Assembly: GCF_003018255.1 (NCBI RefSeq)
Contig: NZ_CP027440.1
Length of the DNA: 64,000 nt
Origin: Escherichia coli
GTDB lineage: Bacteria; Pseudomonadota; Gammaproteobacteria; Enterobacterales; Enterobacteriaceae
Reading direction: 5' to 3' (one strand)
Positions 25,315 to 34,006 of the stretch are shown here, piece by piece. The stretch's first letter is position 1. Each line of letters opens with the position of its first letter. The notes beneath the pieces are model-generated. The model saw nothing but the letters and a program-made list of their open reading frames with translations, made no database searches and was not told the origin of the DNA. Both the position numbers and the translations under genes were made by a program.

Positions 25315-25999
25315 ACAAGTGATGCCGGTTAAGCTGGCGCAGGCGCTGGCGAATCCGTTATTTCCGGCGCTGGATAGCGCCTTACGTTCAGGCCGTCATA
25401 TTGGCCTCGACGAACTGGATAATCATGCATTCCTGATGGATTTTCAGGAATATCTGGAAGAGTTTTACGCGCGTTATAACGTTGAGCTTATTCGTGCACC
25501 GGAAGGGTTCTTCTATCTACGCCCACGTTCCACCACGCTGATCCCTCGTTCCGTCTTGTCGGAACTGGATATGATGGTCGGGAAAATCCTCTGTTATCTC
25601 TATCTCAGCCCGGAACGGCTGGCGAATGAGGGGATTTTCACCCAGCAGGAACTGTACGACGAACTGCTCACCCTGGCCGATGAAGCGAAACTGCTGAAAC
25701 TGGTGAACAACCGTTCAACCGGTTCAGACGTTGACCGGCAGAAGTTGCAGGAGAAAGTACGTTCTTCGCTCAACCGTCTGCGTCGTTTGGGTATGGTGTG
25801 GTTTATGGGCCACGACAGCAGCAAGTTCCGCATTACCGAATCGGTGTTCCGCTTCGGAGCCGATGTGCGTGCTGGCGACGATCCCCGTGAAGCACAGCGT
25901 CGCCTGATTCGTGATGGCGAAGCAATGCCGATTGAAAATCATCTGCAACTCAACGATGAAACCGAAGAGAGTCAGCCAGATAGCGGAGAGGAAGAATAA
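25295..25999 (+). CDS. mukE: chromosome partition protein MukE
   Basis: ORF 25268..25999; start placed at ATG 25295 (MSSTNIEQV...) giving 234 aa; overlaps the mukF 3' end by 20 nt. Confidence 0.9.
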
Positions 26000-28900
26000 T
26001 GATTGAACGCGGTAAATTTCGCTCACTGACGCTGATTAACTGGAACGGCTTTTTTGCCCGAACTTTTGACCTTGACGAGCTGGTCACGACGCTTTCTGGC
26101 GGTAACGGGGCGGGTAAATCCACCACCATGGCAGCGTTCGTTACGGCGCTTATCCCCGACCTGACCCTGCTGCATTTCCGTAACACTACGGAAGCCGGGG
26201 CCACCAGCGGTTCGCGCGATAAAGGTCTGCACGGTAAGCTGAAAGCGGGTGTCTGTTATTCGATGCTCGACACCATTAACTCGCGCCACCAGCGTGTAGT
26301 GGTCGGTGTGCGTCTGCAACAGGTTGCCGGACGCGATCGTAAAGTGGATATCAAACCATTTGCCATTCAGGGCCTGCCGATGTCGGTGCAGCCGACACAA
26401 CTGGTGACCGAAACTCTGAACGAACGCCAGGCGCGCGTGCTGCCGCTTAACGAGCTGAAAGACAAGCTCGAGGCGATGGAAGGCGTGCAGTTTAAACAGT
26501 TCAACTCCATTACCGATTACCACTCGCTGATGTTCGATCTGGGCATCATCGCGCGTCGTCTGCGCTCAGCGTCTGACCGTAGTAAATTCTATCGTCTGAT
26601 CGAAGCCTCGCTGTATGGCGGGATCTCCAGCGCCATTACTCGTTCTCTGCGCGACTACCTGTTGCCGGAAAACAGTGGGGTGCGGAAAGCGTTCCAGGAC
26701 ATGGAAGCGGCGCTGCGTGAAAACCGCATGACGCTGGAAGCGATTCGTGTCACCCAGTCAGACCGTGACCTGTTTAAGCATCTGATCAGCGAAGCCACCA
26801 ACTACGTGGCGGCGGACTACATGCGTCACGCCAACGAGCGCCGTGTTCATCTCGATAAGGCCCTGGAGTTTCGTCGCGAGCTACATACTTCGCGTCAGCA
26901 ACTGGCGGCTGAGCAGTACAAACACGTCGACATGGCGCGAGAGCTGGCTGAGCACAACGGTGCCGAAGGCGATCTGGAAGCGGATTATCAGGCGGCCAGC
27001 GATCACCTGAACCTGGTGCAAACCGCACTGCGTCAGCAGGAGAAGATCGAACGCTACGAAGCGGATCTCGATGAGCTGCAGATCCGTCTGGAAGAGCAAA
27101 ACGAAGTGGTGGCAGAAGCCATCGAACGCCAGGAAGAGAACGAGGCTCGTGCGGAAGCTGCCGAACTGGAAGTGGACGAGCTGAAAAGCCAGCTTGCTGA
27201 CTACCAGCAGGCGCTGGACGTCCAGCAAACGCGCGCGATCCAGTATAACCAGGCGATTGCTGCGCTTAATCGTGCCAAAGAACTGTGCCATCTGCCGGAC
27301 TTAACCGCCGACAGCGCTGCCGAATGGCTGGAAACCTTCCAGGCGAAAGAGCTGGAAGCGACCGAAAAAATGCTCTCTCTTGAGCAGAAAATGAGCATGG
27401 CGCAAACCGCGCACAGCCAGTTTGAGCAGGCTTATCAGCTGGTGGTGGCAATCAACGGCCCGCTGGCGCGTAACGAGGCGTGGGATGTCGCTCGCGAACT
27501 ATTGCGCGAAGGGGTCGATCAGCGTCACCTGGCAGAGCAGGTTCAGCCGTTGCGGATGCGCTTAAGCGAACTGGAACAGCGTCTGCGTGAGCAGCAAGAA
27601 GCTGAGCGTCTGCTGGCAGATTTCTGCAAACGTCAGGGCAAGAATTTTGATATTGATGAACTGGAAGCTCTGCATCAGGAGCTGGAAGCACGCATTGCCT
27701 CTCTTTCCGATAGCGTCTCTAACGCCCGAGAAGAGCGGATGGCACTGCGCCAGGAACAGGAACAGCTGCAGTCTCGCATTCAGAGTTTGATGCAGCGTGC
27801 ACCGGTTTGGCTGGCAGCGCAAAACAGTCTCAACCAGTTGAGCGAACAGTGCGGCGAAGAGTTCACCTCCAGCCAGGACGTCACTGAATATCTGCAACAG
27901 TTGCTGGAGCGTGAGCGCGAAGCCATTGTTGAACGCGATGAAGTAGGCGCGCGCAAAAACGCCGTCGATGAAGAGATCGAACGTTTAAGCCAGCCAGGTG
28001 GTTCTGAAGACCAGCGTTTGAATGCGCTGGCGGAGCGTTTTGGCGGCGTGCTGCTGTCCGAAATTTATGACGACGTGAGTCTGGAAGATGCGCCGTACTT
28101 CTCGGCACTGTATGGCCCGTCACGCCACGCCATCGTGGTGCCAGATCTGTCACAGGTAACCGAACACCTGGAAGGCTTGACCGATTGCCCGGAAGATCTC
28201 TATCTGATCGAAGGGGATCCGCAGTCATTCGATGACAGCGTGTTCAGCGTTGATGAGCTGGAAAAAGCGGTAGTGGTGAAAATCGCCGATCGTCAGTGGC
28301 GTTACTCACGTTTTCCGGAAGTTCCGCTGTTTGGTCGTGCTGCGCGTGAAAGCCGTATTGAAAGCCTCCATGCCGAGCGTGAAGTGCTTTCCGAACGCTT
28401 CGCCACGCTCTCTTTTGATGTACAGAAAACCCAGCGTCTGCATCAGGCGTTCAGCCGCTTTATAGGTAGTCATCTGGCGGTGGCGTTTGAGTCTGATCCG
28501 GAAGCCGAAATCCGTCAACTGAACAGCCGTCGCGTCGAACTGGAGCGGGCGCTGAGTAATCATGAAAATGATAACCAGCAGCAGCGTATTCAATTTGAGC
28601 AGGCGAAAGAGGGCGTTACGGCGCTGAACCGCATTCTGCCGCGTCTCAACCTGTTGGCTGATGACAGCCTGGCGGATCGCGTCGATGAAATCCGCGAACG
28701 TCTGGATGAAGCCCAGGAAGCCGCGCGTTTTGTTCAGCAGTTTGGCAATCAACTGGCGAAACTGGAACCGATCGTTTCGGTATTGCAGAGCGACCCGGAA
28801 CAGTTCGAACAGTTAAAAGAAGATTACGCGTACTCTCAGCAGATGCAGCGCGATGCCCGTCAGCAGGCGTTTGCCCTGACGGAAGTGGTGCAGCGTCGTG

Positions 28901-30459
28901 CGCACTTTAGCTACTCTGACTCGGCAGAAATGCTGAGCGGTAACAGCGATCTCAACGAAAAACTGCGTGAACGTCTGGAACAGGCGGAAGCGGAGCGTAC
29001 CCGCGCGCGTGAAGCGTTGCGCGGACACGCAGCGCAGTTGAGTCAGTACAACCAGGTGCTGGCTTCGCTGAAAAGTTCTTACGACACCAAAAAAGAGCTA
29101 CTCAACGATCTGCAACGTGAATTGCAGGATATCGGCGTGCGTGCTGATAGCGGGGCAGAAGAGCGGGCGCGTATTCGCCGTGACGAGTTGCACGCGCAAC
29201 TGAGCAATAACCGTTCACGCCGCAATCAACTGGAAAAAGCGCTTACCTTCTGCGAAGCGGAGATGGACAACCTGACCCGCAAACTGCGCAAGCTGGAGCG
29301 TGATTACTTTGAGATGCGCGAGCAGGTAGTGACCGCGAAAGCGGGCTGGTGTGCAGTCATGCGCATGGTGAAAGATAACGGCGTTGAACGCCGCTTACAC
29401 CGTCGTGAGCTGGCTTATCTCTCCGCTGATGATTTGCGTTCCATGTCGGATAAGGCGTTAGGTGCGCTGCGTCTGGCGGTGGCGGATAACGAACATCTGC
29501 GCGACGTGCTGCGGATGTCGGAAGATCCAAAACGTCCGGAACGTAAAATTCAGTTCTTCGTGGCGGTTTATCAGCATCTGCGTGAACGTATTCGTCAGGA
29601 TATTATTCGTACCGATGATCCGGTGGAAGCTATCGAACAGATGGAGATCGAACTTAGCCGTCTGACCGAAGAGTTAACCTCCCGTGAACAGAAACTGGCG
29701 ATCAGTTCCCGCAGCGTGGCGAACATTATTCGCAAAACCATTCAGCGCGAACAGAACCGTATCCGTATGCTCAACCAGGGTTTGCAGAACGTATCGTTCG
29801 GTCAGGTAAACAGCGTACGTCTGAATGTGAACGTGCGTGAAACGCACGCCATGCTGCTGGATGTGCTCTCTGAACAGCACGAGCAGCATCAGGATCTGTT
29901 TAACAGCAACCGTCTGACCTTCTCGGAAGCGCTGGCGAAATTGTATCAGCGTCTTAATCCGCAGATTGATATGGGGCAGCGCACGCCGCAGACCATTGGC
30001 GAAGAACTGCTGGATTACCGCAACTATCTGGAAATGGAAGTTGAGGTTAACCGTGGTTCTGATGGCTGGCTGCGCGCAGAATCTGGCGCTCTGTCGACCG
30101 GTGAGGCGATTGGTACCGGTATGTCGATTCTGGTGATGGTGGTACAAAGCTGGGAAGATGAATCTCGCCGCCTGCGCGGTAAAGATATCTCTCCTTGCCG
30201 CCTGCTGTTCCTCGATGAAGCAGCGCGACTGGATGCTCGTTCTATCGCCACGCTGTTTGAATTGTGTGAACGTTTGCAAATGCAGCTCATCATCGCAGCG
30301 CCGGAAAATATCAGTCCGGAAAAAGGCACCACCTATAAACTGGTGCGTAAAGTCTTCCAGAATACCGAACACGTTCACGTCGTCGGCCTGCGAGGATTTG
30401 CGCCGCAACTCCCTGAAACGCTTCCAGGAAGTGACGAAGCGCCTTACCAAGCGAGTTAA
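25999..30459 (+). CDS. mukB: chromosome partition protein MukB (SMC-like condensin)
   Basis: 1486-aa ORF; N-terminal Walker [10 protein letters not shown], long coiled coils, C-terminal signature region; start overlaps the mukE stop (TAATG). Confidence 0.98.
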
Positions 30460-30463
30460 AATG

Positions 30464-30490
30464 AAGGCGGCAGCAATGCCGCCTTTTCTT
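30464..30490 (+). terminator. Rho-independent terminator of smtA-mukFEB
   Basis: Hairpin aaggcggca-gcaa-tgccgcctt followed by TTCTT, 5 nt after the mukB stop. Confidence 0.7.
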
Positions 30491-30502
30491 GTGCACAGAA
30501 AA

Positions 30503-30521
30503 CCCCCAGCTAGGCTGGGGG
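30503..30521 (+). repeat. IS200 left-end subterminal hairpin
   Basis: Perfect 8-bp GC stem cccccagc-tag-gctggggg. Confidence 0.6.
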
Positions 30522-30558
30522 TTCCGGAAAGCTTTCAGCTTTGAGCCAGTTATTAAAA

Positions 30559-30627
30559 CCCCTTTTGATTTGTTAAAACACCTTGCGGTCTGGCAACTGC
30601 AAGTGTCAAACAAGAAATCAAAAGGGG
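30559..30627 (+). promoter_or_regulatory. long-range stem sequestering the tnpA ribosome-binding site
   Basis: ccccttttgatt (30559-30570) is exactly complementary to aatcaaaagggg (30616-30627), which contains the Shine-Dalgarno immediately upstream of tnpA ATG 30634; matches the known translational occlusion in IS200. Confidence 0.55.
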
Positions 30628-30633
30628 GTCCCA

Positions 30634-31092
30634 ATGGGGAACGAAAAGAGCTTAGCGCACACCCGATGGAACTGTAAATATCACATAGTTTTTGCGCCAA
30701 AATACCGAAGACAAGTGTTCTACAGAGAGAAGCGTAGAGCAATAGGCAGTATTTTGAGAAAGCTGTGTGAGTGGAAAAGCGTACGGATTCTTGAAGCTGA
30801 ATGCTGTGCAGATCATATCCATATGCTTGTGGAGATCCCGCCCAAAATGAGTGTATCCGGCTTTATGGGATATCTGAAAGGGAAAAGCAGTCTGATGCTT
30901 TACGAGCAGTTTGGTGATTTGAAATTCAAATACAGGAACAGAGAGTTCTGGTGCAGAGGGTACTACGTCGATACGGTGGGTAAGAACACGGCGAAGATAC
31001 AGGATTACATAAAGCACCAGCTTGAAGAGGATAAAATGGGAGAGCAGTTATCGATTCCCTATCCGGGCAGCCCGTTTACGGGCCGTAAGTAA
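30634..31092 (+). CDS. tnpA: IS200/IS605-family transposase TnpA (HUH Y1 single-strand transposase)
   Basis: ORF 30583..31092; start moved to ATG 30634 (MGNEKSLAHTRWNCKYHIVFAPKYRR...) giving 152 aa; HUH motif within DHIHMLVEIP; near-identical to Salmonella IS200 TnpA as recalled. Confidence 0.95.
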   Translation: MGNEKSLAHTRWNCKYHIVFAPKYRRQVFYREKRRAIGSILRKLCEWKSVRILEAECCADHIHMLVEIPPKMSVSGFMGYLKGKSSLMLYEQFGDLKFKYRNREFWCRGYYVDTVGKNTAKIQDYIKHQLEEDKMGEQLSIPYPGSPFTGRK

Positions 31093-31173
31093 CGAAGTTG
31101 GATGCAAATGTCAGATCGTGTGCGCCTGTTAGGGCGCGGCTGGTAAGAGAGCCTTATAGGCGCATTTGAAAAA

Positions 31174-31192
31174 CCTCCGGCTATGCCGGAGG
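31174..31192 (+). repeat. IS200 right-end subterminal hairpin
   Basis: Perfect stem cctccggc-tat-gccggagg followed by ATATTTATTTT. Confidence 0.6.
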
Positions 31193-31429
31193 ATATTTAT
31201 TTTCCGAAAACTCCGTTTCTGCACTAAAAAAGTGGCACATTACGGCGCGCTTTTCTTTAAACTTCTTTACATTAGGTTATGTAAAAACGTATCGGCGTTT
31301 ATATACTGAAGATAAGCCTGATGAGTAACAGGCTTGCTCGTCATACTTTCGTGAGTATTGGCGTTGTACAGGCAAGTCGTAAAATAACAGCCTGGCTATT
31401 CAGAGTATGATAAAAACAGGGGGCAAGGG

Positions 31430-33277
31430 ATGTTGCTTAATATGATGTGTGGTCGTCGGCTGTCGGCAATCAGTTTGTGCCTGGCCGTAACATTCGCTCC
31501 ACTGTTCAATGCGCAGGCCGATGAGCCTGAAGTAATCCCTGGCGACAGCCCGGTGGCTGTCAGTGAACAGGGCGAGGCACTGCCGCAGGCGCAAGCCACG
31601 GCAATAATGGCGGGGATCCAGCCATTGCCTGAAGGTGCGGCTGAAAAAGCCCGCACGCAAATCGAATCTCAATTACCCGCAGGTTATAAGCCGGTTTATC
31701 TTAACCAGCTTCAATTGTTGTATGCCGCACGCGATATGCAACCCATGTGGGAAAACCGTGATGCTGTTAAAGCCTTCCAGCAACAGCTGGCAGAGGTGGC
31801 GATTGCCGGTTTCCAGCCGCAGTTTAATAAATGGGTAGAGTTACTGACCGATCCTGGTGTTAACGGGAGGGCACGCGACGTGGTGCTCTCTGATGCGATG
31901 ATGGGCTATCTCCATTTCATTGCAAATATTCCGGTCAAAGGCACTCGCTGGCTATATAGCAGTAAACCTTATGCGCTTTCAACGCCGCCGCTTTCGGTGA
32001 TTAACCAATGGCAGCTGGCGCTGGATAAAGGTCAATTGCCTACGTTTGTTGTAGGATTGGCACCGCAGCATCCGCAATATGCGGCGATGCATGAATCGTT
32101 ACTGGCCTTACTCAGTGACACCAAACCGTGGCCCCAACTGACCGGCAAAGCAACGTTGCGCCCAGGACAGTGGAGTAACGACGTACCGGCGTTGCGCGAA
32201 ATATTGCAACGTACAGGCATGTTGGACGGGGGACCGAAAATTACGCTACCTGGCGATGACACGCCAACTGACGCGGTAGTCAGCCCATCCGCTGTTACTA
32301 TTGAAACAGCAGAAACTAAGCCGATGGACAAGCAAACTACGTCTCGTAGTAAACCTGCGCCTGTCGTTCGTGCCGCCTACGATAATGAACTGGTGGAAGC
32401 CGTTAAACGTTTTCAGGCATGGCAAGGATTGGGGGCAGATGGTGCTATTGGCCCGGCAACGCGTGACTGGTTAAACGTAACGCCCGCCCAGCGTGCTGGC
32501 GTGTTGGCACTCAACATCCAGCGATTGCGCTTGCTGCCAACAGAGCTTTCTACCGGGATCATGGTTAACATTCCAGCCTATTCGCTGGTCTACTATCAGA
32601 ACGGCAATCAGGTGCTGGATTCGCGAGTCATTGTCGGTCGCCCCGATCGCAAAACGCCGATGATGAGCAGTGCACTTAACAACGTAGTGGTAAACCCGCC
32701 GTGGAACGTACCACCAACTCTGGCACGCAAAGATATTCTGCCGAAAGTGCGCAACGATCCGGGATATCTCGAAAGCCATGGCTATACGGTGATGCGCGGC
32801 TGGAACAGCAGAGAAGCGATTGACCCATGGCAGGTTGACTGGTCTACAATCACGGCCTCGAATTTACCGTTCCGCTTCCAGCAGGCTCCAGGCCCACGGA
32901 ACTCGCTGGGGCGCTATAAATTCAATATGCCGAGTTCAGAGGCCATTTATTTGCATGACACGCCGAACCACAATCTGTTCAAGCGTGATACACGCGCATT
33001 GAGCTCAGGCTGTGTACGAGTGAATAAAGCTTCCGATCTGGCGAATATGCTGTTGCAGGATGCAGGCTGGAATGACAAACGTATTTCTGATGCGCTGAAG
33101 CAGGGCGATACGCGTTACGTCAATATTCGGCAGTCGATTCCGGTGAATCTCTACTATCTGACGGCCTTTGTTGGTGCAGATGGTCGTACCCAGTATCGTA
33201 CAGATATTTACAATTATGATCTGCCTGCGCGATCCAGCTCGCAAATTGTATCGAAAGCGGAACAATTAATCAGGTAA
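31430..33277 (+). CDS. ldtD: L,D-transpeptidase LdtD (forms 3-3 peptidoglycan cross-links)
   Basis: 615-aa ORF; signal peptide; YkuD-type catalytic region (HxxxxxxxxSxGCxR context, ...LSSGCVRV); matches YcbB/LdtD. Confidence 0.95.
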
Positions 33278-33457: not shown

Positions 33458-34006
33458 ATGGACAAATTCGACGCTAATCGCCGCAAATTGCTGGCGCTTG
33501 GTGGCGTTGCACTCGGTGCCGCCATCCTGCCGACCCCTGCGTTTGCAACACTCTCTACCCCACGCCCGCGCATTTTGACACTCAATAATCTTCATACCGG
33601 AGAGTCAATCAAAGCGGAGTTTTTCGATGGCAGAGGCTATATTCAGGAAGAATTGGCAAAACTTAACCATTTTTTCCGCGATTACCGCGCGAACAAAATA
33701 AAGTCCATCGACCCAGGATTATTCGACCAGTTGTATCGCCTGCAAGGGTTGTTAGGTACCCGCAAACCGGTGCAACTCATTTCCGGTTATCGTTCCATTG
33801 ATACCAACAATGAACTACGCGCCCGCAGCCGTGGAGTAGCGAAGAAAAGCTATCACACGAAAGGGCAGGCGATGGATTTCCATATTGAAGGTATCGCGTT
33901 AAGCAATATTCGCAAAGCCGCGTTATCTATGCGCGCAGGTGGTGTAGGATATTACCCACGTAGTAACTTTGTGCATATTGATACCGGGCCAGCACGGCAC
34001 TGGTAG
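33458..34006 (+). CDS. mepK: M15-family peptidoglycan endopeptidase MepK (cleaves 3-3 cross-links)
   Basis: ORF 33449..34006 (TTG); start moved to ATG 33458 (MDKFDANRRKLL...); twin-arginine signal RRKLLALGG; 182 aa; matches YcbK. Confidence 0.9.
   Translation: MDKFDANRRKLLALGGVALGAAILPTPAFATLSTPRPRILTLNNLHTGESIKAEFFDGRGYIQEELAKLNHFFRDYRANKIKSIDPGLFDQLYRLQGLLGTRKPVQLISGYRSIDTNNELRARSRGVAKKSYHTKGQAMDFHIEGIALSNIRKAALSMRAGGVGYYPRSNFVHIDTGPARHW

Follow-up and report, generated by a model that had tools for sequence, protein, structure and literature searches.

The window, a 64,000-nucleotide stretch of Escherichia coli DNA, contains a complete IS200C element between mukB and ldtD, a known insertion sequence at a typical site that is already annotated in public genomes. 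The element lies within the T-tract of the mukB transcription terminator and appears to be an ordinary, lineage-inherited copy, quite probably one with effectively no consequence for ldtD and mepK, to judge from the sequence of the locus and its relatives; a small effect on ldtD expression is conceivable. LdtD overproduction can bypass penicillin-binding proteins, and a mobile element that altered ldtD expression would matter medically. The locus is mainly of interest as a clean example of an IS200 parked in a terminator, where it would do little harm.

Reading of the sequence together with the list of open reading frames places the mukB stop codon at 30459 and the ATG of ldtD at 31430, with a 711-bp insert between them, and puts mukB, the tnpA gene of the insertion sequence and ldtD all on the + strand. 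The genes and the parts of the element are the following.

25999 to 30459, + strand: mukB coding sequence, the 3′ end of the mukFEB operon (1486-aa open reading frame; mukB in matching RefSeq genomes).
30463 to 30490, + strand: mukB intrinsic terminator, with a hairpin at 30463-30486 (GC core 30466-30483) and the truncated T-tract TTTTCTT at 30484-30490.
30491 to 31201, + strand (the orientation of mukB and ldtD): complete IS200C, 711 bp, delimited by alignment to the empty site of K-12.
30501 to 30523, + strand: left-end hairpin, -18.7 kcal/mol, inside the Rfam RF01405 match.
30559 to 30627, + strand: 5′UTR stem-loop, coinciding with the art200/STnc490 antisense RNA region (fold of 30491-30640; RF01405 match).
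30634 to 31092, + strand: tnpA, encoding a 152-aa Y1/HUH transposase (NCBIfam NF033573 transpos_IS200, 147.7 bits with a cut-off of 55).
31174 to 31192, + strand: right-end hairpin CCTCCGGCTATGCCGGAGG, -15.9 kcal/mol (terminator scan), followed by ATATTTATT.
31202 to 31247, + strand: leftover of the mukB T-tract (TT) and non-conserved spacer, the same as in K-12.
31430 to 33277, + strand: ldtD, L,D-transpeptidase (NCBIfam NF007891, 1195 bits; RefSeq start identical).
33458 to 34006, + strand: mepK, L,D-endopeptidase (NCBIfam NF053624, 274.9 bits; RefSeq annotation agrees).

The structural part of a previous sequence-only reading of this DNA is confirmed by these features. It had placed the right end of an IS200 about 225 bp from the ldtD start, and the distance measured from the right end at 31201 is 228 bp; the displacement of the upstream DNA that it estimated at about 0.7 kb is 711 bp in the alignment with K-12; and the terminator-like hairpins that it attributed to the element are those at 30501-30523 and 31174-31192. 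The transposase match (NF033573) and the left-end RNA match (RF01405) agree with its naming of the element as an IS200, and both the NCBIfam matches and the RefSeq annotation agree that ldtD and then mepK follow the insertion. Beyond mepK is a GloB-like hydrolase (NCBIfam), which is gloC in RefSeq, and the gene order mukB-ldtD-mepK-gloC is kept in Escherichia, Citrobacter and Salmonella.

The insertion point can be read by comparison with K-12, in which TTTTCTTTTT directly follows the same mukB hairpin and the terminator passes the terminator scan. The hairpin itself folds with -19.1 kcal/mol (z -3.6). The empty site in K-12 is GCCGCCTTTTCTTTTTCCGAAAAC and the insertion point is GCCGCCTTTTCTTT^TTCCG (precise empty-site sequence CTTTTTCC), so that IS200C was inserted within the T-tract, 7-8 nt past the GC stem of the terminator. 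A target-site duplication is absent: the left and right flanks of the carriers add up to the K-12 site, CTTT^TTCC. The ends of the element were set from seven other IS200C copies, as G TGCACAG...ATATTTATT; the T-runs on both flanks make its borders uncertain by 1-2 nt. The left junction of the window has one T fewer than other carriers of the mukB-ldtD insertion, among them strain 104, in which the mukB terminator also passes the + strand scan; the tail in the window (TTTTCTT, then G) falls just under the simple terminator rule. Over 7.3 kb, this T and one single-nucleotide difference in ldtD are all that distinguishes the window from strain 104. Given its shortened T-tract, the window's mukB terminator may let slightly more transcription enter the element.

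The element found at the same locus in other genomes is labelled IS200C in RefSeq. Its identity to annotated IS200C or IS200-family copies at other loci is 96-99.6% (98-99.6% for the other IS200C copies, which have a reference length range of about 707-711 bp), and the DNA of its tnpA is identical to the strain 104 tnpA that encodes WP_000526135.1. Rfam RF01405 (STnc490) matches at 30501-30624 over the full model length, 1-124, with 146.4 bits (gathering score 56). The left-end terminator of IS200 has been mapped to nt 12-34 and the 5′UTR stem-loop to nt 69-138 (PMC4513863), and folding of the left end of the IS200C in the window reproduces the published coordinates. The hairpin at 30501-30523 is the published bidirectional terminator of IS200 (nt 12-34; PMC4513863, PMC5435999), and it is likely to be the left hairpin that TnpA binds as well. 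The right-end hairpin was scored as terminator-like on both strands by the terminator scan. IS200C thus has a subterminal hairpin at each end and is without terminal inverted repeats, and its TnpA, as a member of this family, presumably transposes it as single-stranded DNA (PMC5934647). An Rfam match to Ysr202 on the - strand (31169-31284) was rejected as a chance or terminator match, its 30.5 bits being far below the gathering score of 315; its best-aligned portion is the right-end hairpin of IS200C with the adjoining T-run.

In its anatomy the element does not depart in anything essential from the IS200 and IS200C of Enterobacteriaceae, with which it shares a length of 711 bp, a single tnpA for a 152-aa Y1/HUH transposase, a terminator hairpin (nt 11-33), a 5′UTR stem-loop (nt 69-137), a right-end hairpin, and the lack of both inverted repeats and target duplication; the difference is the one T fewer at the window's left junction. 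With IS608 and ISDra2 it has in common subterminal hairpins, insertion 3′ of a short left-flank target, precise excision and the absence of a duplication, whereas it differs from both in being without tnpB. The target of IS608 is paired by a guide tetranucleotide on the 5′ side of the left hairpin (PMC5934647). IS200C has A-rich bases at the corresponding position and a T-rich target, which, by analogy, would fit the guide logic of IS608. The element probably entered by "peel and paste", the single-strand route of IS200/IS605, into the T-run behind the mukB hairpin. With the element at this point the mukB terminator retains most of its U-tract, and together with the left-end hairpin of the element it would shield the element from incoming transcription.

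The 228 bp from the right end of the element to ldtD are identical to K-12 in the alignment. Footprinting within E. coli is uninformative for this DNA, nearly every genome having a spacer of at least 98% identity, and a cross-genus alignment of the mukB-ldtD spacer was substituted, comprising seven sequences (four Citrobacter genomes, two Salmonella genomes and E. coli). The 46 bp that adjoin the element (31202-31247) have 22% mean identity in these seven sequences and one invariant column out of 46, whereas 31248-31429 has 70% mean identity and 60 invariant columns out of 182; conservation across the genera begins at about 31251, approximately 50 bp 3′ of the element. The spacer next to the element varies in length between genera, and Salmonella has additional repeat-like DNA upstream of the terminator. 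Strain VL40 has an IS4 cluster at about 31236, within the unconserved spacer. The conserved part contains the following candidate control features.

31256 to 31270, - strand: CpxR-like box GTAAAGAAGTTTAAA, with one mismatch to GTAAA-N5-GTAAA (pattern search).
31302 to 31307, + strand: TATACT, candidate -10 element for a Cpx-dependent promoter of ldtD, in the conserved block GTTTATATACTGAAG.
31316 to 31342, + strand: palindromic segment 3′ of the candidate promoter and 5′ of ldtD, conserved in six of the seven sequences.
31384 to 31411, + strand: sigma-70-like site ATAACA-16-TATGAT beside the ribosome-binding site (promoter scan); its TATGAT, at 31406-31411, and the ribosome-binding site are conserved.

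The CpxR-like box (letters TTTAAACTTCTTTAC) is held in the conserved block TTTTCTTTAAACTTCTTTACATTAGG, at about 31251-31275, which is near-invariant in the seven sequences from three genera; sites with one mismatch to the same pattern number seven in the 64 kb. If TATACT served as the -10 element, the centre of the box would lie near -51. The palindromic segment matches no Rfam family and is possibly a leader hairpin. These putative promoter positions of ldtD were assigned from conservation and consensus matches. The gene is induced by Cpx and envelope stress (PMC6428754, PMC4791840), with a stress-inducible promoter region of its own (PMC6428754). The published ldtD reporter comprises 579 bp of upstream DNA and spans the insertion point, and it neither localises the promoter nor proves that 228 bp are sufficient.

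The sequence-only reading had also suggested that the element changes the regulatory context of ldtD, and that part of it is unsupported by the sequence. The insertion leaves everything 3′ of the mukB terminator joined to ldtD, since it is in the T-tract of that terminator; the 228 bp that remain are those of K-12, and the conserved module begins about 50 bp away. All that belongs to ldtD in this module (CpxR-like box, -10-like elements, putative leader hairpin and ribosome-binding site) is left intact, 50-228 bp 3′ of the element. Transcripts from mukFEB would meet three barriers on their way to ldtD: the mukB hairpin with its U-tract cut from 10 to 7-8 nt, then, 10 nt further on, the left-end terminator of IS200, which is reported to stop about 85% of impinging transcripts (PMC5435999), and finally the right-end hairpin. 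With these barriers in place and with transcription from the tnpA promoter, which is intrinsically weak (PMC4513863), read-through into ldtD would be expected only to drop, and what remains of mukFEB read-through would be slightly lower at most.

Such a drop could in principle be of consequence, if the element acts as an extra transcription block and the loss of mukFEB read-through lowers the basal expression of ldtD and mepK; a change of read-through from mukFEB had been raised in the sequence-only reading. Two terminator-like hairpins have been added between mukB and ldtD, the left-end one with the reported efficiency just given, and mukB, the element and ldtD are co-oriented. However, the native mukB hairpin is already strong, with a 10-nt U-rich tail, and the read-through that could be lost may be small. 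A conserved module and a stress-inducible promoter region belonging to ldtD lie upstream of it, and an ldtD promoter fusion was reported as not activated in the unstressed wild type (PMC6428754), so that a share of read-through in ldtD expression is not indicated. A lowered basal expression is accordingly unlikely, and near-neutrality is the preferred reading. IS200 is polar when inside an operon, for example in hisD984::IS200 (PMC4513863). As with insertion sequences that activate or silence their neighbours, the element of the window is located 5′ of a medically interesting gene, but it differs from them in lying between transcription units, in a terminator, outside the conserved control region of ldtD and with no outward promoter-like site.

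The opposite effect, in which the tnpA promoter or a hybrid promoter raises ldtD expression and so favours 3-3 cross-links and beta-lactam tolerance, is very improbable. The co-orientation of tnpA with ldtD would be compatible with it, as would the right-end tail, which forms an imperfect U-tract. Against it, the promoter scan found no outward or hybrid sigma-70-like site in or across the right end of IS200C; the only two sigma-70-like sites that it found (31358-31385 and 31384-31411) are both native and also present in K-12. IS200 is not among the elements that are known for outward promoters. The right-end hairpin together with the remaining host Ts is itself terminator-like, and the weakness of the tnpA promoter (PMC4513863) points in the same direction. 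The sequence TTGAAA at 31167-31172, considered by eye as an outward -35 element, was rejected for want of an acceptable -10 element at 16-18 nt.

It is equally hard to credit that the 0.7-kb displacement removes a cis element in the 3′ end of mukB or its terminator, or alters topology, and thereby changes Cpx induction: a distal element would be compatible with the 579-bp reporter fragment, but DNA that is unconserved and variable in length up to about 31250, with extra DNA in Salmonella, argues against a distance-sensitive element, as does the natural IS4 insertion in the same spacer of strain VL40.

The position of the element relative to the mukB terminator is shared by its relatives. All seven of the other E. 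coli IS200C copies that were fetched are directly behind the hairpin and T-tract of a co-oriented gene (pgi, aroG, htpX, kdsA, plaP, wzzB and one unnamed hypothetical gene). Species-representative genomes were then scanned for the 19-nt left hairpin, which was found in at least 120 contigs, from Enterobacterales, Vibrio, Oxalobacter, Desulfovibrionaceae, Bacillota, Elusimicrobia and Saccharibacteria. The upstream flanks were scored by a strict terminator rule that demands a perfect stem, and by whether the 42 nt upstream contain a hairpin of -10 kcal/mol or better; the minimum free energy measure was added because the strict rule undercounts imperfect stems (80% by the rule, 97% by the hairpin measure). 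The results for the flanks and for three sets of controls were as follows.

Unique IS200-type left-end flanks (n=104): strict rule 79.8%, hairpin 97%.
T-run sites in the same loci, control (n=1750): strict rule 6.3%, hairpin 15.3%.
ORF-free T-run ends, control (n=1229): strict rule 7.9%, hairpin 13.1%.
Random positions, control (n=823): strict rule 1.1%, hairpin 25.8%.

Counted from the last G/C pair in the stem of the host hairpin, insertion peaks at 6-7 nt. The left-flank base at -1 is T in 105 of 105 copies, which follows from the definition of the boundary, and the base at -2 is T in 103 of 105, while positions -3 to -6 are T-rich. The insertion point between mukB and ldtD is a typical landing place of IS200-type elements. 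The association of the IS200 left end with terminators across phyla, at a fixed spacing, is very strong, and it has been reported statistically before: terminator-like sequences are enriched just 5′ of insertion sequences, most strongly for IS200/IS605 (bioRxiv 10.1101/2025.07.22.666184). The same pattern is seen at the mukB-ldtD insertion and in the 104 flanks. The preprint gives a family-level statistic and reads it as a limit on transposase expression, whereas the present analysis resolved, for one IS200 subgroup, where in the T-tract insertion occurs and how far from the stem.

The availability of T-runs alone was rejected as the cause of the association with hairpins, control T-runs having a hairpin in only 8-15% of cases. 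Selection against other sites is possible, with copies surviving best behind terminators. Alternatively, and tentatively, the transposases of IS200-type elements could be directed by structure, integrating specifically 6-7 nt past a DNA hairpin followed by Ts. Under such targeting, an intrinsic terminator mimics the right end of IS200, which is itself a hairpin followed by ATATTTATT. The targets of IS608 (TTAC) and ISDra2 (TTGAT) are short sequences for which the need of a neighbouring hairpin is unreported, whereas IS200-type copies are almost always 6-7 nt past a hairpin. If targeting by structure is true, IS200 would be naturally "terminator-seeking" in all these phyla, with insertions that are near-neutral by design to neighbours such as ldtD.

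The distribution of the insertion fits a single old event inherited within one lineage. The identical insertion is present, under the name IS200C, in 97 of 5,426 complete E. coli genomes, and 5,307 genomes have an uninterrupted mukB-ldtD site; this pattern gives no sign of selection either for or against the insertion. The window is not identical to APEC O2-211; the two show 241 ungapped differences in 42 kb, some of which arise from indels. All of the best 40 matches to the reconstructed flanks contain the insertion, and many of these are poultry or APEC isolates. The insertion would serve as a stable marker for a single E. coli lineage, with many poultry isolates among the listed carriers. 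A precise empty site within the same flank haplotype as in the window, at 100% identity, is present in the chicken isolate GPEC60-33-648.

The spacer between mukB and ldtD carries other DNA in other genomes. In E. coli VL40, an IS4 cluster, comprising an intact transposase gene and a partial one, is inserted approximately 195 bp before the ldtD ATG, equivalent to position ~31236 of the window; it falls within the unconserved spacer that also adjoins IS200C and, like IS200C, is upstream of the conserved CpxR-like block. VL40 is one of about 20 complete E. coli genomes that have neither the IS200C insertion nor an uninterrupted junction. In Salmonella (L134 and L137), the spacer contains 70-150 bp of additional palindromic, REP-like DNA between the mukB stop and the terminator, including GCCTGATGGCGC...CTTATCAGGC and GCCGGATAAG...; this additional DNA shows the evolutionary plasticity of the stop-to-terminator segment.

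Two features were identified in the native DNA between IS200C and ldtD:

31235-31250, minus strand: terminator-like site, GCGCGCCGTAATGTGC then CACTTTTTTA
31316-31342: palindromic segment, GCCTGATGAGTAACAGGC overlapping GATGAG...CTCGTC, kept across genera

The terminator-like site is native, K-12 having the same sequence, and is probably a chance match because the region is unconserved between genera. The palindromic segment, located between the candidate promoter and ldtD, matched no Rfam family; it may form a hairpin in the leader or act as a regulatory RNA element.

At the left junction of IS200C (slash), the window reads TTTTCTT/G at 30484-30491, while strains 104 and APEC O2-211, the two carriers read there, have TTTTCTTT/G. 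The difference of one T in the mukB terminator tail could reflect either a true deletion or a sequencing error in the homopolymer.

The left hairpin of IS200 (19 nt, CCCCCAGCTAGGCTGGGGG), used as an exact-match query, gave at least the contig hits L012-L131. On three of these contigs (L106, L107, L109), IS200 copies are arranged head-to-tail, the left end of one abutting the right end of another at a junction that reads ...CCGGAGGATATTTATT/GTGCCCAG...; because no sequence separates the two ends, the right end of IS200 can itself be used as a target, which fits the pattern of a hairpin plus T-rich target.

Among the matches listed, the exact hairpin is on contigs whose assigned phyla lie very far apart (Oxalobacter, Vibrio ruber, Peptococcaceae, a Bacillota MAG, Mailhella/Desulfovibrio, Elusimicrobia and Saccharibacteria), and the matches in L012-L131 are often at contig ends. 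This distribution suggests that one IS200 subgroup has spread widely by horizontal transfer or, for some MAGs, that contigs were mis-binned. A second class of matches (L038, L041, L094-L104) has the identical 19-nt hairpin in other contexts, …AATAAGCAT-hairpin-TATTTCTT and …GTTAAAGAAATA-hairpin-ATGCTTATT, and is probably the end of another element of the IS200/IS605 type in Firmicutes.
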